DNA of 62,814 nt, counting the filler, from Collodictyon triciliatum (Eukaryota), in assembly GCA_043381765.1 (NCBI GenBank). It is 6 parts of 6 records of this genome, joined end to end, with 100 filler letters (N's around TTAATTAATTAA, not from the genome) between each part and the next. Parts side by side here need not be neighbours in the genome. Positions count along the whole stretch, not along the records: positions 51,716 to 55,488 come from JBHJMP010002171.1; 5 more parts are not named here. One strand, written 5' to 3'. Position numbers and translations under genes: made by a program. Below, in pieces: positions 10,101 to 55,232 of this stretch. The notes beneath the pieces were generated by a model. That model worked only from the letters and a program-made list of their open reading frames with translations. It had not been told where the DNA came from and did no database searches. Each line of letters starts with the position of its first letter. The stretch's first letter is position 1.

Positions 10101-12785
10101 CGATTATAGACATTATTGTAGGAGGCAGGATGTCTACAATGAAACATTTGAGCGATTGACAAAGAAGAAACTAAATACGCTGTAAAAATGTACAGAAAAA
10201 TGCGAATGGAAAGGGTCTCCCTATTGGAAAAAAAAAGGATGTGGTTTTTGCAGTGGTGATATAGAATTGTTCAAATACTCTGAGGACTTCTCAAATTCAG
10301 TTGGTGTATTTCCACCATGCGGGAGAGAAATCCATCAATACCGGATAAATACGCTGGAAAGCCAGACATTTGATTAATTGAATGATGCAATGTGAATATA
10401 CAGGCGAAACTGGAGTCTTAAATTTCAAAGTATTAGAAACCTTGATTGCGATGAAGAATTCGCTGTTTTTCACCAAAATGGGTTTTCAAAATATGAATCG
10501 GTTTTATGGGTGCTTCTGTGAGAAAGGAAGTAAGATTGAGAAAACCCGACTCCATGTGAATATTAGGAGGAGATACTTTAGGCAGGTCTTAATTGATTTT
10601 ATCTTGTATTTTGTAATTTGCTTTTTTTTTAAAAGTAAATGGTGTAAAAAATATGTGTTTCAAACCTTTCTCGCTGAATTCAGGCGAGTCATCTGCGTCG
10701 GTGATAAGCAAAGCTAAGACAGGACATAGATGGAGCAAACTGCTCGTATCGACCAGGCGAATAAGCTTCGAAAGGTGAGCTATTGAGGCATAGAAAATGG
10801 TTTGGCAGGGTTAAATGATTATTTTTGGATTCATGAATTACGATACAATAAATACTTACAGAAGGTGGACAAGTCAATCAAAATAAACGAGTGATCAAGC
10901 AAAATCTCCAAAATATTGCATAGGATGGGAAGTGAAATATCGAAGCTCTAATTCGCACAGCATAAGTTCTTGGGTTATTAAATCACATATGCACATGGTA
11001 GCTCTTTTTATTCGAATGCACGTATGTCAAATTTTCAGCATAGCATTGCTTATTTGAAACATACCATGAATGAAAATAGGGTGTTGATGGCCGTTTTAAT
11101 GTCTTTGATTATCATATCGATTTCAAGAGGCATCTGACCCATTATTGCATTTAGTGAAAATGTATCTTGTTGAGAAAATTGGATAGAAATGAAGATTTTG
11201 GCTTTGAATCTTACATACCAAGAGTAAGATATCGCGAATTATTGTCAGTGAGTGAACTTTACACATCTTTTTCAAATATACAGAAAACGATTCTGTGGCA
11301 TCAAGATGATATTTCAATTAATTGTACCAAATCATTTTTATTTCAAACAAAATTATAATGGTTAATGAATATATTCGATGACTTTGGATACAAGTAAAAT
11401 TTGAAACCTGGTCGCTCAGCCTTTGTTCTTGGGTCTTCCAAGAAAATTGTTAATCGAAGCAAAATATCTGCGCCGCTATAAGATATAAAACTATAACAAT
11501 TGTCCAGAGCCGATGGATTTTCGTCGTTCATTGCTTCAGATAGCGTTTCTAGGTTTCTTGGTATCTGTTTAGTGATTTTCAAGAAAAAAAATATTAGCAA
11601 ATCGAATCAGTACGGTGATGGACATAAAAAATAGTCATTAAGTTGGACCAAATAATATTGATATTGGGAATTTTAAATAATCAATGAGAATTTGAATAGC
11701 GCTAAAATTATTTACAAAATAGACCTTAGTGAGGCTGGACGAAGGATCGACAATGATCTCCTCCAGTTCCATCAAAAGCGATAATATCTGATTTGATTCG
11801 GCATCCATAGCATCAACCAATAGAGTAGGAATCTATCTCATGTGTGGTGGAAATAGTATTACAGTCTGAAGTCAAAAAATGAATCAATCAATCGCCTTTG
11901 CAGTCTATTCATAAACATAAACATTCGCAAAGAAGTAATAGCGTGTAAGATTCCTCTGAAATTTCATACAGAAAAGCCTTAAAGCTATAAATCAATCCTA
12001 TGAAACTGACCTCGCCAATTGCTCGAAAAGAGCGGCTCTTGAGTTCTCTATGGAATAATTTGGTGGCGACACTCTTTGGTTGAAAGAATCCTTTGCAAAG
12101 AGATATTGAGCGTGCGTGGTTAGTAAGAATCCCTATGAACAACATATAAATGCAAATGTAAATCTGAATCTAATGATACGATGATATGACCGGGAGAGTT
12201 GCACAAACGGTAAGCGCCAAGAAGGTTATGGCGAGGACACTTTGGGGGCTTTTCGTTCCCGGGACCTTCCGGCTCGCCATAAACATACCTTCGAAAACTC
12301 TTGGCTGAGCTTGACACCTGCAACGATAAAAAAAAAAAAATATGCCGTTAAGAATCATATGTTGGCATTCACGTTTGTAAAGTCATTTCACGGGATCAAT
12401 CTATGTTGCTCAACGCTTAATCTCGCAAAGTAAAAAGAATATAAAAAAAGATAGTTTTTCTTATTCTTCCTTTCAATTTGTGCTAGATGATACAAGGAGC
12501 ATAATCATATATTTGAAGAGTCTTGGGTTTCTTTGGTTTTGATGGATATAATCATTGATTGTGCCTGTGGATGGATTCGGCTCAGAGATGAAGTTGGAGA
12601 TACTTTAGAGGAAAGCAAACCCAATTACACAACTCCAGAATGCGTGTGTTTTGCAACTCATACAACGGTGAGCGTTGACCGCAAATGCTGGTTCCGTCGG
12701 TAAGCGAGGGCTGGGGGAGAGTGGGTCCCAAAGCAGGGTATGTCCTCGTCTCCCGTGTTGTTACTCTTGCACAAGTTTCGCTCAT
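7103..12785 (-). CDS. TRPC4AP: TRPC4AP/TRUSS-like protein (CRL4 substrate-receptor family), multi-exon; start uncertain
   Basis: Spliced peptides HLSKLIRLVDTSSLLHLCPVLALLITD, NQAYLSGIDGFLSRMV, VKYVLQGLLSGPRRRDVQ, CHCVPELNNRIQLIRAIENLID and LEISSRKSIQYWRK are colinear with TRPC4AP motifs as I recall them (NQAALLSIPGFVERL, CDCSPDITLKIQFLRLL, LENSSCISFSYWK). Confidence 0.75.
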
Positions 12786-35310: not shown

Positions 35311-35852
35311 ATTCACTCTGACGCGTGGACAGTTTTGTGTCGCTGTGTGCTTTCAGGCGACCGAATAGTGTCGTTTAGTACAGCGCCGCTTTGACTAAAA
35401 GGCACAGGAGAGGATGCGCGGAGTGAGAAGAAGGATAGTTTGCCTTGAGAGAGAAGCGTGTGAATGGATTCGACTTTGATGAAGGGAGAGGAAGAGCGAA
35501 TGGTGTTGATGGAGCTCCACAGAGGATCCACGGCTGTTGGCAGAGCGGTTTATTTTATTTGTTTATTTATATTTTTTTTTTAAAAAAAAAAAAAAGTTGA
35601 ATGAAGCGTAAGATGTCTTGCAGTGGATTGGTGGCTGACAGAGCGGTTGCCAAACGATTAAATGCTTTCGTGGTTCGTGTTTGCGGTTCTTGATTCGATG
35701 ATTTGACTGGACATTGCCAAACCCCACACCAAAAAAAAATAATATTATCTCAACGGTCAGATTCCCGTTGCGCTTTCGAATCACTTATGGATCGATATAT
35801 TTGGAATATATGCCAATTGCTTATTCCTTACTTAATGGACTGATATTGTCTA

Positions 35853-35975
35853 CTAGAAGGGGTATACAATCTTTCGATTGGCAAACCTTGTCCGTTAGCA
35901 TCCAAAGTCTCGCCACTTTTTTCACAAAGATTGAGTAGTGGTGAACACTGCCAGGAAAGACCTAACAGCCTGATT
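35853..35975 (-). ncRNA. Candidate Fanzor omegaRNA scaffold, copy A
   Basis: Non-coding 3' end conserved with copy B. Four predicted stems, including GCTGTTAGG/CCTGGCAGT and CAATC-GAAA-GATTG. No expression evidence. Confidence 0.6.
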
Positions 35976-37849
35976 TTTTAAAGAGAGGTGTGTACATTTT
36001 TTGAAGGATTAAAAGAACTTTCTTGAGTATATTTTTAGCGCTGTTAAGTCCCTTGTCAAGAATACACTTTGCTTTCTGAGCGATTACATTCTTTACATAT
36101 GATACATCTAAACACTTTTTTCGTTTTTCCTTTCAGTTTCATATAATCCAGTTCTTTTTCGCAGTTGCAACACATCTTGGAGGTTCTAAATTACAATAAC
36201 TGCTTCAAAACGTTTGGATAGTATTTTTCGTAATCCCCTTCCGATTGTTGCCATAAAATGGTTGATCGGAGATTTTCTGCTCCAGTCTCCATACGCCAGT
36301 ACAACATCCTTGCCAAATGTCTTCTCGATTCCGTCCATAAACAATTCTTCACTTCTTTTTGTATTAAGATAATGCCTCTATATCATCTTTCGAAAAGTGA
36401 CGTGTTCATAAAATCTGGATAATTCTATCTGGTATCTTGATATCATAGATACACATTTTCGATATTTTTCATAATCAACTGTGCACGAATTATGTTTACT
36501 CAGTCCTGTCTCTAAATCGATTAAAGATATTCTTGATGTCTCAAACCACTGATTCTCTTCAAAAGTCATTTGACCAAAAGAAATAGCACTTTGTAAACCT
36601 GTTGCCATGCATATCCCTGAAGCGTTGTGCTTTTCTTTTTTTTCTCGCGCAAGAGTATTTTGTGTTTTTAAGAGATTTGCTATAGTGTCTTCTTTGGTGT
36701 AGTGTAACGTAATTTCTTACCTGCCTCATCCACCATGTAAACCAAATTAAACTTGCCTGCGTCCACTCCAACTATTATTTTTTTTTTGTCGCTAATAAAG
36801 ATAGTCGCTCTTCGGAAAGTTCATCTATATAAACATAGTCTTGGGTTTTTGATTATTATACTTGATTTTTGAATTTGAAATACCTTTCTTTTCAAACAAT
36901 AATGACACCGCCAAGCCGTCTGTTTGTATCATGTATTAAATATTGTAGTCTGTTTGAATACCCTCCTCTTCATTTCAAAAAACCTATCCCATAGGGTCTC
37001 TTTGCATCCTGATATATTAGTCTTTAATAATGATTTTTTTTCCAGTTGATACCAACATATCTGTCAAACATGCAGTATCTAGACTAATATGACATGGTAT
37101 ATTGGTAGTTCTTATGGGTATTTAGTTGAAACAGTTTGGTTCCAATGTCCTCAAAAATGCGATTCATGTAAATCAGACATGGAATGTACTTATTTGGATT
37201 GACTTTGACATCATGTTCGATACCATTTACAATATCGCTGGGAATGATATGATGCAAATGTATTGCAGCCCATTCTTTATATTGTTCCTTTATTTCGAGA
37301 TTCTTGAAGAAGTCTTTTTTAACTTTCGTAACTCCGCCTTTTTAATAGCTTCCGTAATGTTCTTGTCTTTAGGAACTGTTTGATTTATAAAGCGCAGAAA
37401 CCTCTTTACAAAATGACCCTTAATGTTATTATGATAAGCTGTTAACATTTGCTTCGCCAACTGCGGTAATACACGAGATAGTCCAACGAACGGAAAGCGT
37501 TCTTTCCGGGGCAAAATGAATCGAAAATCATTGATGTAAAAAGTCATCATGTCGTCTCTCATATCTGGATGTTTTAATATTGTGTGTCTATCTTGTGAAA
37601 CTATTCCGACTGTCTTTAAAGTGTACAAAAAAACATTTCATCGATTGTTGGGAGTTGTGATTTCAATATGTAGCATCTTGCAAACAGATAAGTGTCGGTA
37701 ACCAAATTATGACACAATAAAGCCGTATCGTTGATTTCGTCATAGTCATCGGGATTCTTTACAATCGACCTTGGAGATGCTTTCACATTTCGATAGTCTG
37801 GTTTTACAGACTTTACATTCTCAGACTCAAGACGTTTTCTTTTCTTCAT
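35962..37849 (-). pseudogene. Fanzor (TnpB-like RuvC nuclease, Fanzor1-type), frameshifted
   Basis: Fragments: MLTAYHNNIKGHFVKRFLRFIN, IQTDGLAVSLLF, RuvC-I VGVDAGKFNLVY, VVLAYGDWS...TIGRGLRK, FRTSKMCCNC...CKEC zinc finger, RuvC-III TRD..SAKNI. Multiple frameshifts and stops. Confidence 0.88.
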
Positions 37850-38715
37850 GTGAAAGTCTTTGTTTTACTTTTTTTTTCCTTTAGATAACCACCGATTTTT
37901 CAATTTGATAAAACTTTAGTCAAATAGTCAATTTAATATATAAAACAACTGCACAAAATCAATTCAGGTAAAATTAAGCATCTACCGAGACTTTCAAAAT
38001 GTGCGCATTGTGGCAAACAGACACGCAAAGATTTTTTACAAGTGATTTGAGATAAAATGATGAGAGTCGATTTGGCGAGCTCGAAAGGACGGCCATACGG
38101 CCATTTCGACTGAAAGTCAACATATCGGCCCCAAACAACACGATTACCGCCGCAAGTGTGGATAGTATGTTTTTTTGAAATGCATGTTTGGTGGCTGGTT
38201 TATAGGGTGGGTTCTTTCTGGGCCAAAGCAAGGGCTTGTTTGTAGTTTTGAATTTCTATGATATTATTACAAAATGGAAAATAAAATATAAATTGATTAC
38301 AGGAATATAATGAAAGATTATTAAGTATTTTTAACCTTATTATATATACTAATAATACTATTGTATTATTCAGGTTGTTTCTTGGATTCATCAATGCTCC
38401 TGCTTTTTTCAATCCAGATTTAATTCGATGGTTGTCTGTGCAATAAACTGCTATATCCGTGGGTACACTTTCGTTGTATAAAAAGTGGTGTGCTTTGAAA
38501 GGGGTAAACCCTAGTTCGTCACAACCTTTGTAATGAAGTTTATCCATTAACAGGCTGAATGAAATCGAGGAGAAAGGAGAAGGAAAAGGAGAAGGAGAAG
38601 GAGAAGGAGAAGGAGAAGGAAAAGGAAAAGGAAAAGGAAAAGGAAAAGGAAAAGGAAAAGGAAAAGGAAAAGGAAAAGGAAAAGGAAAAGGAAAAGGAAA
38701 AGGAAAAGGAAAAGG

Positions 38716-44029: not shown

Positions 44030-45755
44030 ATGCTCGGACAAACAAAACAGTTTATTCCTCTCTGGAAACAAAAAGCTGCGCGGTCTAGAGGGCTTTCTGG
44101 ACTTTCTCAAGCTCTATGGATGAGTGGGTTGTCCAGCAGATTAGGGGGACTGGGCGCTTCTACCACGAAACGCTTGGAAGAATCCCCATTGAGCCTTAGC
44201 CAGGTTTTGAAGAACCCACCCGACTTTCTCAGAGAACACAAAGATACACTAACAAAAGCCATCTCAACAGAGGTTTGTACAAAGAGACTCCTTTATGTTA
44301 TCTATGTTGTTTATCATTGTGATTATTATTGCTGGTTAATTAATCCTGTTTGTGAATGGCCCACATATGCTCCGTCAGAAAAAATGGAGACACAAGTAGA
44401 AGCTAACTGATACACTGCACTGACTCGACACATAGGAATGGATAATTATTGCAGCAGAGGCCTATGGATCAGGTAATTTTTCTGATTCGAGAAACGCTTT
44501 TGAAGAAACAATCACAAAGGAATCAAGTGGAAGCGCTGGGAAAGTTGGGCTTCTATTACTCGAGCTCGAGCACCCGTCGAGTTGCAATCTTATCACTCAC
44601 AAAATGATCCATGAGTCTATTCAAAGGGCAACATCTCAACCTCAATCGATAGAATATAGTACCATAGACCGTGCTATGGATACTTCTTTTAAGAAAAAGA
44701 CACCTACAGGATGCAAAACCGAATTGCAAGGAGCTAAAACAGCACCAGAGAAAACTATCTTGGAGGGGATTCAAGACTCAATTATCAATCTTCCTGAGAA
44801 GCAGCACACACAGGGAGAAAGTATAGTAAAAAAAGCTTTGGATCAGATTGGCACTTACAACCACAAAGACACTCAGGTCGAAGGATTTTTAACAGCCATG
44901 TTGGCCAGAATCATACAAGCTGGGCCCATGCGGGACACAGAAAGTGCACAAGGGTTGAATGCAAGAGCAGCAAACCTCGGAGCACCAGCCGGACTCTTTG
45001 GGGTTGCTGAAGGACTATTCAGAGGGCGGGGAGGCTCTGAAAGAAGCTTACCTGGCGCTTTCAAGATGTTTATGAAAGCAGCAGCGAGTGGACATGCGCA
45101 TGCTTTGGCGCAAACAGGTCACTGTTTTTCCACAGGTACGGGCTGCCCAAAGCCTGATTTGTCCGCTGCTTTGCGTTCGTATCGTGCAGCTGCGTTTCTT
45201 GGGGAGCATGTCGCACAGCTGAACTACGCTTTCTTTCTCGAGCATGGATGGGGTGGCGCTTCTGCAGACACTGAGGCAGCCGCATTTTGGTTTCATGAGG
45301 CTGCATCTTATGGCCTAACTGACGCCCAGCGAAACTATGGCAGGTTGATATTACCTCCATCATTGGTTACATTCGATAGCGACCCGGACCTTTCCCGGGT
45401 ATCGAATGCAGGAGGCCACGATAATGATGCAATCACTGAAGTGGCCTTAGAATGGCTTCATAAGGCTGCTAAGAGAGGCGATGATGATGCACTGGTACAC
45501 ATCGGCTCGATACTCTACACACGCGACCCTGCTTATTCCTTCGAATGCTTCAAAAAAGCTGCTAATCGCAACCATCTTGATGCGGAGTATCTTTACGGAA
45601 AAATTCTGTATTACGGCGCACCTCCTCATGTGAAAGTTGACATAGAACAAGCACTGCGCTGGCTACGTCGTGCAGCTATGCGCTCCCATCCAGGTGCTGC
45701 GTCCCTACTGAGCCAACATCGGGCTTTGACAGGAAATACAAACAATATGCAATAA
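44030..45755 (+). CDS. Sel1-like repeat protein (exons 44030-44272, 44436-45755)
   Basis: Repeats such as AFKMFMKAAASGHAHALAQTGHCFSTG, AAFWFHEAASYGLTDAQRNYG and AEYLYGKILYYG..VKVDIEQALRWLRRAA. Confidence 0.9.
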
Positions 45756-46918: not shown

Positions 46919-49900
46919 TCAAAGGGTTGGTTGAGGCTGTATTGGCTCAGAATTATCCGCTAATATAATCGTCGCATCGCCGGCTGGGGTTTCGACGACC
47001 ATATCCTTTGGAGCAGATGTATTCTGTAGATTAGGTTTGGTAAATTCATTTGTATTATAAAACACAAAGATGGCGTTGATTAAATTGAGAGATGATGTGG
47101 GTTTCACATGGATATATCAAAAGTGAGTAAAATGTTAATTTCTAATAAAAGTAACGTTACATACTGGGGCGATTATCCTCAAACTTTCCTCTGCATCACA
47201 GACAACTAAAAGCAAATAAAGAGAATTATGACCAACGATTCCTTTAATTAGTTAAGGGGAAAGTGAAATATTGCTCTGCATTTTTTTTTTTATTAAAAAA
47301 ACAATTCATAATCCCTTTTCTATAAATTCAAAATGCACCATCAAAGGCAAAAAACTATTGAATTTAATTTGACTCTAAAAATATTTTGAATCGAACAAAG
47401 GAAAAAAATTGACTCTCGAATTAAAGAATACTGATTTACACATACAAATTATGTAGAAAGACGATAAGGACTCTATTAATTTATTTTTTTTGGAAAACTA
47501 AACAGATGAATGAGTATGAAACCTTTTTGTAGTTGGCCACTGATATGCGAAAACGCGGAAGAGCATTTTGGGCACCTTAGAAGAGTCTGGTTGTTGGCAT
47601 GACAGGAAATAATTGTACCACATTCCAAACATTCTACATGTGTTTGAGACTTTTTGCATAATTCACATGTGATTGGTATTCCAGACACGTATTTGACCAT
47701 TGTACACGATTCACATCCGGTACAAACATAAACGATGTTAATTTGATCGCAATTTGGGCACGTATGTAAGGGTGCATCATTCAAAGTGATTTGAACAGGT
47801 TGAAGACACCCTGAGCATATCGAGAGAAGATGTTGTGTTTTGCAAGTGCAGCATTCTATTTTGCCTTGGCAGGCTGGAGAGATTACGGTGTAATCGGAAC
47901 ATTTTGTGCAAGCGACATATGCACATGACTGGAGACACAAGAAGCAGAGAAATGTCTTCTTTGGTGTAGAAACAGGGACGATATTGGTTTGAAAGCACTC
48001 TTTGCATTTTCCAAAGTAATTCACTTTGTGACACCTGCGACAAACGCAACTCCAGCTCCCTTCCTCCAGTATCAATATTTCGGTGCGACAATGTAAACAG
48101 GTATGGTTCAATTGAACTTGCCTGCAGGTTTCGCAGACATTATCAGCCATTTCCTTGCCTGCGCGATATTTTCAGGTCAAATGGTGTGGTTAGGTCACGC
48201 TGTCATGATATTTTGGCTCTGTTCCGACAGGATATTCACCCACTCAGATTAATTTCAGAATTTAAAATAAGAATAGGGAATGAAAATATGAATTTAAAAT
48301 ACGAATTAAATAAAGAAACACGAAGACTTGATTGCAGACCGTACCTTCAAACATATCGTTGCAAATCGCACATGTTTTCAGCTGCTCCTAAAAGAAAATC
48401 TTAAGTATAGCGATTTAACCTTTTTGAATTAAATAAAGAAAAAAAAAGGGCACTCTTTCATTTTGAAGACTAGGAAAAAGGGGCACCTTTTTAAAGGAAC
48501 ATCTGACACAAATGAAATAATAAGAAAATATGCAACCTCTGATGGAGTGACATCGAAAACGTTTCGAGGGTAAAATGGTGGTGGACGAGCAGAAGGTTTT
48601 CCAATCATGGCAGTTTGCGCAAGGGATAGTACACCAGGCGATTCATCTCGATAATTACCTTGGAATGGTTCTACATTTGAATCCACAGCGCTCGTATATG
48701 AGAGCCTGGAAGGTAATTGCTTCTGCCTTTTTGATGTGGAGGAGTCGGAATACACATGAAAAGTGATGCTTGAGCTCTGCTCAATTACTTGTGAGTTTCG
48801 AACAGTTGCCATCTGATGTGACTTCCGAGATAGTTTTTTGGTTGCAAACTCGGTTTCCTCTGACTTGTTTCGTTTCCTTTGTGTGCCACATAGCAATGAG
48901 GTATTGCTTCTGTAGAAAACTCCTTTAGACAAGCCTTTCGATTGGAAAGCGTGAATATCATTTCTATACATAACAAGTAGTTCTTTGGTTTCTGGGTGGG
49001 GATTCATATCCATAATTGACTGCATGAGATTGAGAAAGCGTTCATAATCTGCAGGTGAGCAATAAATAGAAAAGGGATTCATGAGTCCAAATATAATTTT
49101 GTCTATGTTCTCTTTGATGCGGGTATGAGCTGGAACATCCCATTCTGCACAGCTATCGAATACATCAAGAGCAAACATAGACTGCAGTTGTCTGAAATGC
49201 GATTTAAAAATATTTGGATTGAAAATATCTGTTTTTGAACCTATAGTCAAATAATTACTTAGGAAGGATATTACAAATATGTGCAAATATGTTCATATAA
49301 AAAGAAAGAAATTTTTTTATTTCTAATGTATTGCATAATTATATTGCATTAAAAATTAACCTGTGAGAACTCTATCTTTTATATCTTCGAAAAGTTGGGC
49401 TGAAGATTTCGATTTCAAAGATATGGCTGTATTTACAAAACTTGTGCAGGACAAATTCTGTTGGAATATATTCGAATCTATTGGGAATAAATTCAAAAGT
49501 GTAGAGCGAACCAAAAATTGAAGCTCTCCTTTTGTCATTCGAGAAAATAAGTCATTCTCTGATGCTCGAGGGCACTTATCCTGATCAACTTCCGGTGAGT
49601 CGTCTCGAGAATAGATAGTGATAATCGGAAGTCCACACAAGAAAGGGTATAAAAGCACAGATTCGTGCGTGTTTTCCATAGCAAATCGATAGAGGTTGGT
49701 TGAAGGGTTCAAAATTAAGCAGAGCTTTTCTTCAAAAGCCGGTGTCCAATTTGTATCGTACACAATAGCATTTATCGTAGGAAGAGTCACATAGATTGGA
49801 GCATCGATAGAGCTTACCAAGACGATTTCACCTTTCCTTGGACTTTCCATTAGCTCGATACGATTCTGTATCTGAAGATAATCACTAGCGGCATCCAAAA

Positions 49901-51486
49901 CCACAACTTGGCGATTAGAGACTGCGATTTGTGATGCAATAATGGGGAGTAGTTTATCATCAGATGTAAAAATTACTGTTGCCAGCTGGTTTGAATCCAA
50001 ACTTTCAAGCAAAGATATTAAGACGGTAATTTTGGAGCACATATTTCCAGAGGATAGTGGCTTCATCCATTCAATAGATAACAGTTCACGATGTAAAAGT
50101 TCTACGTTTTGTAACAAAAACGGATGATTCACAACTTTTTGAGTTAGTCGGATGAATCGAATCAGAAGTTCTCGTGAAGGTTCATTCTGACAAAAATTTG
50201 AAGCGCATGAGAAATATATGGAGCGCATTAATGCTTTCTGAAAATTTGTTAAAGGGACTAGTATCAAATATTCGTTTTCTAAACTCATGACTACCGTTCG
50301 GTTGGATAAAAAGCGTGATACAGTATCAGGCCTAATAAGTGACTCTAAAATGTCTTGATGATGTGAGGTGTGAACAGAGGAAAGCCGATTTCTTAAAGAA
50401 ACATGATTTTGAGGTGTATCGCAGTTAAGGAAGGAATACTGTTTCCATAAATCCACATAAGAAAATTTCTCTTGTAAGGGAAATGTGAGAAGGCGAACTC
50501 TCGAGTCGAGCCTGGACATATTTCTCAAAAAATCAGACCCTTCTTCATCTTCACTAATTCCATTCATGCCAACAAGAACTAGAACCAACCATGTTAGTTG
50601 GCTAAGATGATTGTAGTCCCGCACAAATATTTCATAGGTGGTGAGCAGAATATTGAATTTAGGTCGCATAGTTTGTTGTGGTAGCTCCATAATCAAATCG
50701 TTAGCCCGAATAAACGAGCGTTCGGTCTCTGGCCCAACATACTCAACAGCGTACCATTCTGGAATCCTGTGAACTAGTGCAGACCATTGAGCTATAGTTG
50801 AGGGAGAATCTGACGGGCATATAATTATTGAAGGGAGGTCTGAATAGGATGCCTTTGATGCTTGGTGAATAAAGGTGACCAACTAATATATTGTATTCGC
50901 ATTTTACAGTTTAGATTTGATACATGTTTTTTAAATATAAATACGGATACGGTATGCATAGTTATGTCGCTAATTTCGGTATTACAGAAAAAGCCAGCCT
51001 TAACTTATAAACTTTTATACTCACTGTTTCTTCGGGATGCAAATTTTTGTCATCGAAATATATCGTGGGCCTGAATTGATTTAAAGACTCGTATAATTTG
51101 ACATGAGCTGCCAGCTGATATATGTTCAGGCTTGAACTAGATGGGTGTATCGATTCACAGAAAAGGTTTTGATTTGGATGCAAGCGTTGTCTCTGACTTG
51201 GGTCTAAGTTGGGGTACTTTCTCCTTATGAATGCTTCCAACTAGAGGAATGGTCGAAGGGTAAAAAATCAATATATAAATTCTTTAAATATAATTCTTTA
51301 TACTGGAAAAAAATGAAAGTCTTATAAAAAAAGCCAAAAAAATGAAGACGACCTTAGTCTTCTCTTGTGATATCCAAATATCATGTTCCCACGATGATTC
51401 GATATAAGGGAGACTATTCCACTTCACAAGGTAAATATTTCGAAATGTCTGTGGACATCGCTTACATTGAAGTATTCTATCGACCT
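46919..51486 (-). CDS. CHD-like chromodomain + degenerate SNF2 ATPase + tandem CxxC zinc fingers, 5'-partial
   Basis: Chromodomain VDRIL..YLVKWNSLPYIESSWE. SNF2 motifs KFNILLTTYEI, LVPLTNFQK, LTQKVVNHPFL and SKITVLISLL. In-frame phase-1 splice MFEG/KEMADNVCETC leads into the Cys-rich exon. Confidence 0.75.
47377..47408 (+). mobile_element. 32-bp poly(A)-tailed retro-insertion in an intron of the CHD-like gene
   Basis: ...TTTTGAATCGAACAAAGGAAAAAAA lies between TTGACTCT repeats (47369-47376, 47409-47416). Confidence 0.55.
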
Positions 51487-51947: not shown

Positions 51948-52369
51948 GGATTGCGAGATCTCGCTGGCGATCACAATTGCAATGCGGTTAGGTGCTTTTG
52001 AAAAGAGTTGACAAAACGTTTGCCGTTCCGTCAATTTACTTTGTCTCCATCAAGACCCAACAGTCTCGTGCTTCGACCACGGTATCGAAAAGGATACTGA
52101 GGAGGAAAGTAGAACTGGAAAATCATCACATTTTCAATAAAAGTCCCGAATGTTTTGAGCCGGTATAATAAAGGACGCGAAGATCCCAAGCCGTGGCGTT
52201 CAAGACATCGGTTTCCAAACGCGATCGAAAAAACATAACGATCTACAAAAATGAAAAAAAAAACACACACATTCGAAAGAGTCGCGCATAGGAAAGGCCT
52301 CTGGAACATACTTTTATCTATGAGATACCGTACTATTTCATATGGAAATGATTATCAAATATCGATTTA

Positions 52370-52490
52370 CTGGAAGGGTTTACAATCTTTTGATTGGTAA
52401 ACTTGGTCCACTAGTATCCAAGGTCTCACCACTTTTTTCAAAAAGAACGTGTAGTGGTGAAGGCTGCCAGGAAGGACCTGACAGCCTATT
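52370..52490 (-). ncRNA. Candidate Fanzor omegaRNA scaffold, copy B
   Basis: Stems at 52461-52487 (11 bp), 52426-52433/52453-52460 (8 bp), 52402-52422 (5 bp) and 52378-52402 (10 bp plus a bulge). Confidence 0.62.
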
Positions 52491-54527
52491 TTTAAAAGAG
52501 AGGTGTATGCTTTTTTTTGAAGGATTAAAATAACTTTCATGAATTTTTAGCGCTGTTGAAGCCCCTTGTCAAGAATACACACTTTGTTTGCTTTCTGAGC
52601 GATTGCATTCTTTAAATACGAGGCATCTATACAACTTTTTTTTTGATTTTCCTTTCGGTTTCATACATTCCAGTTCTTTTTCGCAGTTGCAGCACATCTT
52701 GATGTTCAAAATTCATCTACACTAACTGTTTCAAAACGTTTGGATAGTATTTTCGTAATCCTCTTCCAATTGTTGGCATAAAATGTCTCATCGGAGATTT
52801 TCTACTCCAGTCTCCATACGCCAGTACAACATTCTTGCCGAATGTCTTTTCGATTCGTTCCATAAACAATCCTTCACTTCTTTTTGTATTAACATACTGC
52901 CTCCATACCATCTTTCGAAAAGTCATCATGTCCATAAAATCTGGATAATTCTATCTGGTATCCTGATTCCATAGATACATACTCTCAAAATTGTTCATAA
53001 TCAACCGTGCATGAATTACGTTTACTCAATTCTGTCTCTAAATCGATTAAAGATACTTTTAATATCTTGAACTGCTGATTCTCTTCAAAAGTCTTGTGAC
53101 CAAAAGAAACAGCACTTTGTAAACCTGTTGCTATGCATATTCCTGAATCATTGTACTTTTTCTTCCTGCGCAAGTGTATTTTGTGTTTTTTAAGAGATTT
53201 GCTATCATGTCTTCTTTGGTGTGCCGTGTAACGTAATTTCTTACCTGTCTCATCCGCTATGTATACCAAATTAAACTTGCCTGCATCCACTCAAACTAAT
53301 TTTTTGTCGGTAATAAAGATAACTGTTCTTCGGAAGGTTCATCTATATGAACATATTTTGATTTTTTTTGTTTATATTTGGATTTTGAATTTGAAATACC
53401 TTTCTTTTCAAACAATAATGACACCGCCTAGCCGTCTGTTTGTATCATGTATTTAAAATTGTAGTCTCTTTGATGAAAGACCCTCTTCTTCATTTCAAAG
53501 AACTCATCCCATAGGGTCTCTTTGCATCCTGATGTATTCTTCAGTAATTTTTTTTCAGTTAATACTTATATATATCAAACATGCAGTATCTATGGTAATA
53601 TGATATGGTATATTGTTAGTTCTTACAGAGATTGGTTGAAGCAGTTTGGCTCCAATGTCCTCAAAATGCGATTCATGTAAATCAGACATGGAATGGACTT
53701 ATTTGGATTGACTTTGACGTCATATTCGATACCATTTACAATATCGCTGGTAATGATATGATGCAAATGTATTTTAGCCCATTCTTTTTATTGTTCTGGT
53801 ATGTCGATTTTCCTGAAGATTTTTTTTTTAACTTTTGTAACTCTGCCTTTTTAACAGCTTCCGTAATATTCTCATCTTTAGGAACTCGCTATCACTGATT
53901 TCTTTCCAGTGCTAGCCTCTCCAGGGTAGTGTCTTCTCCTACTCGCGTTTGCTCTCTCCCATGCGCTCTCATCCCGCCCCTTTGTATGGCATTACCTCGC
54001 TACACTTTGAACCGAATAAAGGAAAAAAATTCTCATCTTTAGGAACTGTTTGATTTATAAAGCGCAGTAACCTCTATACAAAATGTTCCATATGGTTATT
54101 ATGATAAGCTGCTAACATTTGCTTCGCCGAGTACGGTAATACATGAGACAGTCCAGCCAACAGAAACCGTTCTTCTCAGGACAAAATGAATCGAAAATGA
54201 TTGAGATAAAAAGTCATCATTTCTTCTCTCATATTTGGATGTTTTAAAAATGTGGGTCTATCTTGCGTAACTACTCCGACTGTCTTGAAAGCGTACAAAA
54301 AAAAAAAAACGTGTCATCGATTGTTGGGAGTTGTTGTGATTTCAATATGTAACATCTTGCAAACAGATAAGTGTCGGTGACCAAATTATGACACAATAAA
54401 ACCGTATCGTTGATTTTATCATAGTCATCCAGATTCTTTACAATCGACTTTTGAGATGATTTCACATTTCGATGGTCTGGTTTTACAGACTTTAGATTCT
54501 CAGACTCGACGTTTTCTTTTCTTCATC
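52490..54527 (-). pseudogene. Fanzor (TnpB-like RuvC nuclease), frameshifted and interrupted by a retro-insertion; 3' end approximate
   Basis: VDAGKFNLVYIADETGKKLRYT, VVLAYGDWSRKSPMRHFMPTIGRGLRK, VSVDEF, MCCNC, TRGFNSAKN. Confidence 0.88.
53887..54029 (+). mobile_element. 143-bp poly(A)-tailed retro-insertion (truncated non-LTR/SINE-like 3' end) with 18-bp TSD
   Basis: Absent from copy A. Flanked by TTCTCATCTTTAGGAACT (53869-53886, 54030-54047) and ends TTTGAACCGAATAAAGGAAAAAAA. Confidence 0.88.
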
Positions 54528-55232
54528 TGAAAGTCTTTGATTTTCTTTTTCCTTTAGAAAACTACCGAGTCTTCAATTTTTATAAAACTTTAGTCAATCA
54601 GTCATAGTCCATTTAATAAAAAAAAAAAAAAACTGCACAAAATCAATTTAGGTCAAATTAAACATCTACCGAGATTTCCAAAATGTGCGTATTGTGGCAA
54701 ACAAACACAAAGTTTTTTTTATAAGTGATTTGAGACGAAACGTTGAGAGCCGACTCGACGAGTTCGAAAGGACGGCCGTATAGCCATTGTGGCTGAAAGT
54801 CAACATACCGGTACCAAACAACATGATTGCTGCCGCAAGTGTGGATAGTATGCTTTTTTTGAAATGCGTGTTTGGTGACAGGTTTACAGGGTGGGTTCTG
54901 TCTCGACCAACGCAAGGGCTTATTTGTAATTTTTGAGTTTTATCGATTTTTTTTTATTCTTCCTGTCAATTTTGCGCAGAATGGCGGAGGTTTCATATAT
55001 TCGGTTTCATTTCAGTTTATTTGACATGTGGGGTGGCGGAGATTTTTGGTGTGCCACTGGTAACTTCACAAAATATTGGTTTCGTGGTAAAATGTGCTGA
55101 TTAAATACGGGTATTCTTTTTTGGAGAAGGGGAACAAGAAAACATGCCTCCTGATGAATACGCCGAATGTACACCACGTGATGCAATTAAAATGAAATAT
55201 ATACTATAAACCCAAATAATTAAACACATCCA

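Follow-up and report, generated by a model that had tools for sequence, protein, structure and literature searches.

The last 120 bases of a transposon that occurs twice in the DNA analysed here are probably a relic of the scaffold region of a Fanzor1 omegaRNA. The DNA, hereafter the window, is a stretch of 62,814 nucleotides from Collodictyon triciliatum (GenBank assembly GCA_043381765.1), in which six parts are joined by filler. We propose that the element is a Fanzor1-bearing, non-autonomous DNA transposon and that its last 120 bases would be a non-coding right-end module. In an active copy, transcription of the sense strand would run through the gene and past its stop codon into the four hairpins, which would fold into the scaffold of the nuclease's guide RNA (omegaRNA or fRNA), and would then continue into the 15-20 host bases just beyond the element, which would supply the guide. 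The first two hairpins, H1 and H2, would be the part held in common with the closest intact relatives, and the last one, H4, which lies 8 nt from the end, is probably also the 3' hairpin of the transposon itself. That the hairpin block is transcribed, bound by the protein and used with a guide is what we infer, and with a broken nuclease gene in both copy A and copy B, the module of these two copies can only be a relic.

A high-copy element with two copies in the window

Both copies are on the minus strand and each is about 2.5 kb long. Copy A occupies 35851..38261 and copy B 52368..54946, as delimited by self-BLAST together with alignment and junction reading. The self-BLAST blocks join 35851-37377 to 52368-53886 and 37360-38268 to 54030-54953, each with 85% identity, and the full alignment of the two copies has 84.0% identity over 2469 aligned columns, with 185 transitions versus 129 transversions.

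The element belongs to a high-copy family. Contigs of four sequencing runs were compared with the window, and those that match the element, 80-99% alike, number 514 in run X5 and 498 in run X12. The contig depth in these two runs is 1.75-2.64 in the bin 52297-52393 and 121-182 in the next bin, a difference that was not used as evidence. Fifteen runs share sequence with the window, in small shares and mostly as freshwater or lake metagenomes. In the lake-water metagenome runs X1 and X2 there are 151-nt contigs that span the 3' junction of copy B and match the window without a difference (0 over 52312-52462), so that freshwater samples must contain the organism itself or a very near relative of it. 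When metagenomes were scanned with a 19-base pattern located directly upstream of H1, 50 loci were returned, and 0 of the 50 resemble the element (BLASTN E <= 1e-5).

Copy B carries an insertion of 142 nt at 53887-54028, with a 19-nt direct repeat on both sides and an A-tail on the plus strand. The summed contig depth over 53868-54047 is 1100-2700 versus 100-400 elsewhere in runs X5 and X12, and the contigs of other family copies skip from 53867 to 54029, i.e. past the insertion, which looks like a very high-copy SINE-like retroposon. Between copies A and B there are two long single ORFs, 49356-50882 (-) and 44604-45755 (+), one with an SNF2-related domain (E 4.2e-8) and one with Sel1 repeats (E 5.2e-22), and several other ORFs of the window, 220-480 aa in length, are without a Pfam match.

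The nuclease gene

The sequence-only reading held that the element carries a gene of the TnpB/Fanzor type, and this is borne out by protein matches, by colinear tblastn hits and by the RuvC motifs. A read-through of copy A (177 residues, with X at its one TAG) matches 741 proteins at E <= 1e-3, 96 of them at E <= 1e-10 and the best at E 4.7e-35. The full-length relatives are 600-760 aa long. One of them, P0005 (634 aa), is 46% identical, and in tblastn its residues ~80-625 are colinear on both copies and match nowhere else in the window, with no sign of introns. The D, E and D of the RuvC sites are invariant in 40 relatives. The Pfam domain Cas12f1-like_TNB scores above its cut-off in one of eight relatives and more weakly in three others; it was also the only Pfam match on ten ORF pieces of the window, where it stayed below the cut-off (E 0.064).

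The account of the Fanzor motif in Bao & Jurka 2013 (PMC3627910) gives a D, then [TS][TS]-x-x-C4 zinc finger, then RD, and all of its parts, together with the RuvC-II Glu, are readable in the window copies as VDAGK, as DEF with TSK and the C4 finger, and as TRD/TRG. In copy A the broken region from RuvC-I to the zinc finger is located at 36056..36820 (-) and holds VDAGK, GDW and the C4 finger. The broken C-terminal half in copy B, at 52540..52950 (-), runs over three frames and comprises the GDW region, DEF, the C4 zinc finger and the RuvC-III site, in which G replaces D. Neither copy has an ORF of at least 120 aa, and the gene is scattered over three frames.

The frameshifts and stops that split the Fanzor motifs are specific to each copy, as judged by the contigs and by P0158, a family member with 79% identity. 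Compared with copy B, the contigs of other copies lack two bases at 52577 and have additional ones at 52700 and 52749, and in P0158 the DEF, the zinc finger and the TRD are found in a single frame. The idea of ancestral frameshifts near the zinc finger, common to A and B, was therefore dropped, and the family must have had an ancestor with a complete catalytic set, of which A and B are dead copies. As both genes are broken, neither copy would be able to make its own RNP. Word searches among longer proteins found P0158 alone with the zinc-finger piece and nothing with the N-terminal piece. The same-family fragments P0004, P0006, P0007, P0072 and P0158 all have a broken or incomplete gene, and no intact family copy was found among these fragments and the two copies of the window.

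Four hairpins at the 3' end

All four hairpins that had been read from the sequence are present in copy B, where each of the 33 pairs across H1-H4 is a standard one. H1 (52461..52487, minus strand as for all that follow) pairs 52487-52477 with 52471-52461 in a stem of 11 bp with the loop TCCTT; loop position 52474 is a T in nearly all other family copies, according to the contigs. H2 (52426..52460) has an 8-bp outer helix, 52460-52453 with 52433-52426, which surrounds an inner stem of 3 bp and a 3' side rich in A. H3 (52402..52422) is a stem of 5 bp, 52422-52418 with 52406-52402, with an 11-nt loop, and does not occur in the minimum free energy (MFE) structure of copy B. H4 (52378..52402) pairs 52401-52392 with 52387-52379, giving 9-10 bp with one bulged C and the loop AAAA, and stops 8 nt upstream of the terminal CCAG. 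It is a candidate for the guide-proximal stem, for the 3' hairpin of the transposon, or for both. As first written, H3 and H4 had one G in common, G52402, which both of them need and cannot both use, so that this part of the description had to be corrected. The tail of 10 nt that follows (52368..52377) is as in copy A except for one extra C and one C/T change, and we propose that it holds the last bases of the scaffold before the guide.

In copy A the block is located at 35853..35972 (-), with H1 at 35971-35961 paired with 35955-35945, H2 at 35944-35937 with 35917-35910, H3 at 35906-35902 with 35890-35886, and H4 at 35885-35876 with 35871-35863. Here 29 of the 33 pairs are kept (24 unchanged and five with a one-sided change to G-U), four are broken, and the H4 loop is GAAA. 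The stems that had been described for copy A, with their G-U-compatible changes, mismatches and GAAA loop, are thus there, but the G-U changes carry little meaning: transitions outnumber transversions and half of the transitions in a stem make a G-U pair, so changes of this kind are expected under neutral decay. Conservation had likewise been overstated, since the identity of A and B in the 3' block is 83% versus 84% for the whole element, i.e. at background; the two copies differ at 9 of 66 paired sites and at 10 of 50 unpaired ones. A covariation check between A and B gave no compensatory pair, with 0 of the 33 pairs changed on both sides.

The stability of the block is another matter. The end of copy B (52368-52490, -) has an MFE of -45.0 kcal/mol versus -26.0 +/- 3.8 for dinucleotide shuffles (z -4.96), and 0 of 200 shuffles are equally stable. 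When the copy is scanned in pieces of 123 nt, the 3' end has the lowest energy of 31, the runner-up being at -29.3, and copy A likewise has its minimum there, at -32.9 among 28 pieces (runner-up -27.3). Folded on its own, the end of copy A (35851-35975) is not significant, with z -1.36 and 22 of 200 shuffles as good. In each copy it is the sense strand that has the lower z of the two strands (-5.03 versus -3.16 in B, and -1.57 versus -0.58 in A), and hence the better fold. Two more stretches of 123 nt, in the coding region of copy B at 53680-53802 and 52532-52654 (-), are also more stable than their shuffles, with z -3.68 and -3.21 against 30 shuffles each. A search of Rfam at E <= 10 gave five matches in 52000-55200, all with E 4.3-9.4 and far below gathering, and none of them in 52368-52490.

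A terminal pseudoknot between the loop of H3 and the shared CYAGTA had also been suggested, and we dropped it. The complementarity is present in both copies but at chance level: 2270 of 5000 shuffled loops match the 4-bp run of copy B, and 1028 of 5000 the 5-bp run of copy A. Nor is a pseudoknot, as had been assumed, a general feature of Fanzor omegaRNAs, since the omegaRNA of SpuFz1 is without one in the description given by Saito et al. (PMC10432273).

Counterparts in giant viruses

The closest full-length relatives of the element are located on giant-virus contigs of IMG/VR (L056-L163) and have intact ORFs. They were collected in searches that gave 5 loci, then 528 relatives of which 80 were kept, and then 28 ranked against the window's own piece; the identity to that protein piece is 44-46%. 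In the main viral group, 55 distinct loci fold their last ~140 nt into five helices, which share sequence with the final codons and extend to the element terminus. Over these loci and 24 pairs, 96.2% of the cells are paired, and 146 cells are changed on both sides versus 44.7 +/- 5.2 in shuffles (0 of 500 reach 146). If the partners are slid by 1-3 columns in the alignment, only 3-39 cells are changed on both sides. The many G-U pairs in the helices indicate that it is the transcribed strand that folds. The Fanzor1 clade to which the viral loci belong has a selected RNA structure at its 3' end, and as the helices overlap the last codons, the C-terminal residues have apparently been shaped by RNA stems. 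The stop codon lies within a stem and the element ends directly after GGTGTAA; L069:4295-4436 is one example of such a structure.

The link between these structures and the window comes from a covariance model, R3, for which copies A and B were the only input and the four hairpins the structure. With filters off and 12 viral loci (72 kb) searched, its top three matches are L058, L057 and L056, with E 0.0085, 0.019 and 0.026, and the next match is at E 0.59. All three matches are on the sense strand and start ~60 nt past the RD codon, in loci whose proteins are the closest to that of the element. With default filters and 69 viral loci (418 kb) there was a single match, L058 4292-4422, at E 0.049. 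The matches have modest scores of 15-17 bits, the E-values are rough ones, and L056-L058 are related to each other. In the alignment, H1 corresponds to an 11-bp hairpin and H2 to the TGACC/GGTCA helix that directly follows it. At synonymous codon sites, one base pair of this H1-like hairpin differs among the three loci, being C-G, U-A and A-U. The scaffold interpretation was partly supported, by the 3' sense position, by the Fanzor1 gene and by the R3 matches in three relatives, but found no backing in the pseudoknot or in covariation between A and B.

In the opposite direction the viral models did not find the copies. Model R1 gave 19 matches in the window (E 0.27-9.7) and model R2 gave 15, none of them at the copy ends. 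The R2 alignment begins inside the H1 counterpart, with its 3' arm only, and its consensus pairs nothing in the counterparts of H1 and H2; 40 aligned relatives proved too divergent to serve in a locus search. By eye, the window and the viral ends have TTCACC, GAAAAAAGT..AGACC and TTTAC...GTAAA in the same order. No model supports a homology of H3 and H4 to the terminal helices of the viruses, and we dropped it. The two viral models also share a weak match at 10541-10648 (+) in the window (R1 E 1.9, R2 E 0.53), which carries ATTGATTTTA and TGGTGTAAA as viral right ends do. No Fanzor ORF was found near it by tblastn, and it is either a solo relic or due to chance in AT-rich DNA.

The ends of the element

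Both copies open with TC after an A (38261-38260 in A, 54946-54945 in B) and close before a T, with CTAG in A (35856-35853) and CCAG in B (52373-52370), after which TA is common to the two (35852-35851 and 52369-52368). In the window this terminal motif occurs only at the ends of the two copies. As quoted in PMC3627910, Helitron1 elements are defined by 5'-TC and 3'-CTRR ends, a subterminal hairpin and insertion between A and T, and H4, 8 nt before the terminal CYAG, stands where the single subterminal 3' hairpin of the Helitron type, about 10 nt from the end, should be. The CCAG of copy B does not fit CTRR, and the boundaries rest on two copies.

The main rival to an omegaRNA scaffold is therefore that the hairpins are purely signals at the DNA level, which arise in the single-stranded intermediate during transposition of a Helitron-like element, mark its 3' end for a Rep/helicase and have nothing to do with a guide RNA. 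We regard this as unlikely. In its favour, the TC after A, the CTAG or CCAG before T and the hairpin 8 nt from the end agree with the Helitron1 definition as it is quoted in PMC3627910, the stems of copy B are nearly all Watson-Crick and fold well in antisense too, and the family has reached about 500 contigs in each of X5 and X12 despite broken or incomplete genes wherever it was seen. Against it, a Helitron needs one subterminal hairpin and not four, and H1 and H2 are located 90-120 nt from the end. These two have counterparts in giant-virus relatives, whose helices tolerate many G-U pairs, and the ends of the viral loci L062 and L063 are ACACC...GGTGT, which is not Helitron-like. No RepHel gene is found in the window. 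Copy B is also flanked by a 9-nt direct repeat, AAATCGATA, at the junctions 54941-54949 and 52359-52367, a length that 9 of 2000 shuffles reach, and canonical Helitrons make none such. This repeat is not a clean target site duplication, since the 5' AAATCGATA overlaps bases that are aligned to the 5' end of copy A, and the 7-nt junction repeat of copy A is not significant (456 of 2000 shuffles reach it).

An omegaRNA scaffold and a DNA signal could also meet in one and the same hairpin, and it is plausible that H4 doubles as a Helitron terminator and as an RNA stem. For the TnpB omegaRNA of IS200/IS605 elements, the idea is likewise that an end hairpin recognised by the transposase lies inside the scaffold. 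With such dual use, H4 would be the signal for rolling-circle termination in the DNA and the guide-proximal stem of the omegaRNA, and would, if true, link the end point of the transposon to the start of the guide. A wider scenario, in which a Fanzor1 and guide module derived from giant viruses was fused to Helitron-type termini in a freshwater eukaryote, with a dual-use H4, and spread to hundreds of copies, is a tentative one that we regard as unlikely.

Closure of the reading frame

In copy A the frame on the RuvC-III side, with the motif NSAKNI (ORF 35962..36132, -), is closed by a TAG at 35962..35964 (-), which sits within the 5' arm of H1. The homologous frame of copy B would be closed by a TAA at 52492..52494 (-), 5 nt before H1, provided that the A-run at 52511-52518 is one base shorter. 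The run has one A more than copy A and the contigs; contigs without the extra A make up 82.7 of a depth of 127.5 in X5 and 67 of 67 in X12, with two contigs in each run. With the frame closed at the 5' margin of H1, the hairpins occupy all that is left of the element beyond the stop codon, and the block lies on the sense strand between frame closure and the element 3' end. Published Fanzor omegaRNAs or fRNAs come from the 3' end and abut the right end, in the systems described in PMC10432273 and PMC10530073.

This position would be the same for a structured 3' UTR with some other function in the RNA, for instance in mRNA stability, in the formation of the 3' end or in processing. The strand does not separate it from a guide scaffold either, for which guide use is only what we infer, yet we find a plain 3' UTR improbable. 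The structure stops at the last bases of the element, and the members of the RNA-guided nuclease family for which tests are described in PMC10432273 and PMC10530073 take their guide RNA from exactly this place.

Less probable still is a coding role, in which the stretch would be the C-terminal tail of the nuclease. The ORF of copy B at 52367..52546 (-) has no stop within the element and finishes with a TAA that lies across the element border, and relatives have tails of 2 to ~50 residues after their RP..F motif. But the frame of copy A closes at its TAG, and the openness of copy B hangs on the one extra A that neither copy A nor the contigs have. A second frame is also open, which makes open frames uninformative in the 3' block, and a word search with the tail frame among proteins of 32-104 residues found no protein with common words. 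Coding of a tail by the hairpin block was therefore dropped. A fortuitous origin of the hairpins, as inverted repeats that arose by chance in a decaying element, is hardly credible, for although copy A alone is not significant and A and B differ as much here as elsewhere, none of the 200 shuffles matches the stability of copy B (z -4.96), the 3' end is the lowest-energy piece in both copies, and R3 finds its matches at the homologous place in relatives.

Relation to known systems

The nearest parallel to the proposed scaffold is the omegaRNA or fRNA of characterised Fanzor1 systems (SpuFz1, GtFz1, PpFz1 and KnFNuc). As far as these are described in Saito 2023, Jiang 2023 and Xu 2024, they have in common with the window a structure at the 3' end, on the sense strand, that abuts the right end and overlaps or adjoins the stop codon; in the window the structure is a candidate. 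The flanking DNA is the guide in the published systems, and would be so for the element of the window. The omegaRNA of GtFz1 has four stem loops, as does the block of the window. The published SL1 has 7 bp, while H1 has 11 bp and H2 8 bp, there is no sequence or Rfam match to the block, and the genes of the two window copies are dead.

Helitron-type carriers of Fanzor1 have been described before from Chlamydomonas reinhardtii (the Helitron2 elements CRe-1/2/3 with Fanzor1c, and CrFNuc; PMC3627910, PMC10530073), and these are non-autonomous as well. According to the accounts in Bao & Jurka 2013 and Jiang 2023, they have a conserved structured RNA at the 3' end and short direct repeats of variable length at the junctions. 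Their asymmetric terminal inverted repeats set them apart from the window element, the ends of which instead look Helitron1-like (5'-TC, 3'-CTAG and one subterminal hairpin). The gene of the window element is also without introns, as judged by the colinear tblastn, and its nearest relatives are genes of giant viruses. Compared with the 3' terminal hairpin of Helitrons, H4 is alike in its 9-10 bp placed 8 nt upstream of a CTAG or CCAG end followed by T, but the element has three further hairpins upstream, the 9-nt repeat of copy B and no RepHel in the window.

The giant-virus Fanzor1 elements are similar in layout, with a distance of ~185 nt from the RuvC-III motif to the end versus ~175 nt in the window copies, and in L056-L058 helices like H1 and H2 stand in the corresponding position. 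They differ by their intact ORFs, by helices that extend over the last 17-45 codons, and by a terminal motif ending in GGTGTAA with short ACACC/GGTGT termini, which the window copies do not have; nor do the viral RNA models R1 and R2 recover copy A or B. For the TnpB of IS200/IS605 elements, the description in PMC10432273 has the guide RNA arise from the 3' end of the transposon and partly overlap the ORF of the nuclease, which resembles the block of the window. Those elements are prokaryotic and their omegaRNA has a pseudoknot, whereas the one proposed for the window is at chance level.

Implications

That the 3' end of a Fanzor element yields an omegaRNA is a general principle that is already established, so that our finding adds to a kind already known and is not the first of a new one. 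Its practical value depends on an intact natural copy, as both copies of the window are dead. On the reading favoured here, the family would be a second, Helitron1-like case of a Fanzor that rides a rolling-circle element. If the block is what we think it is, a high-copy family of a freshwater eukaryote would have given a compact Fanzor1 guide scaffold of four hairpins, and the fact that its nearest relatives are found in giant viruses bears on the movement of Fanzors between viruses and their hosts.
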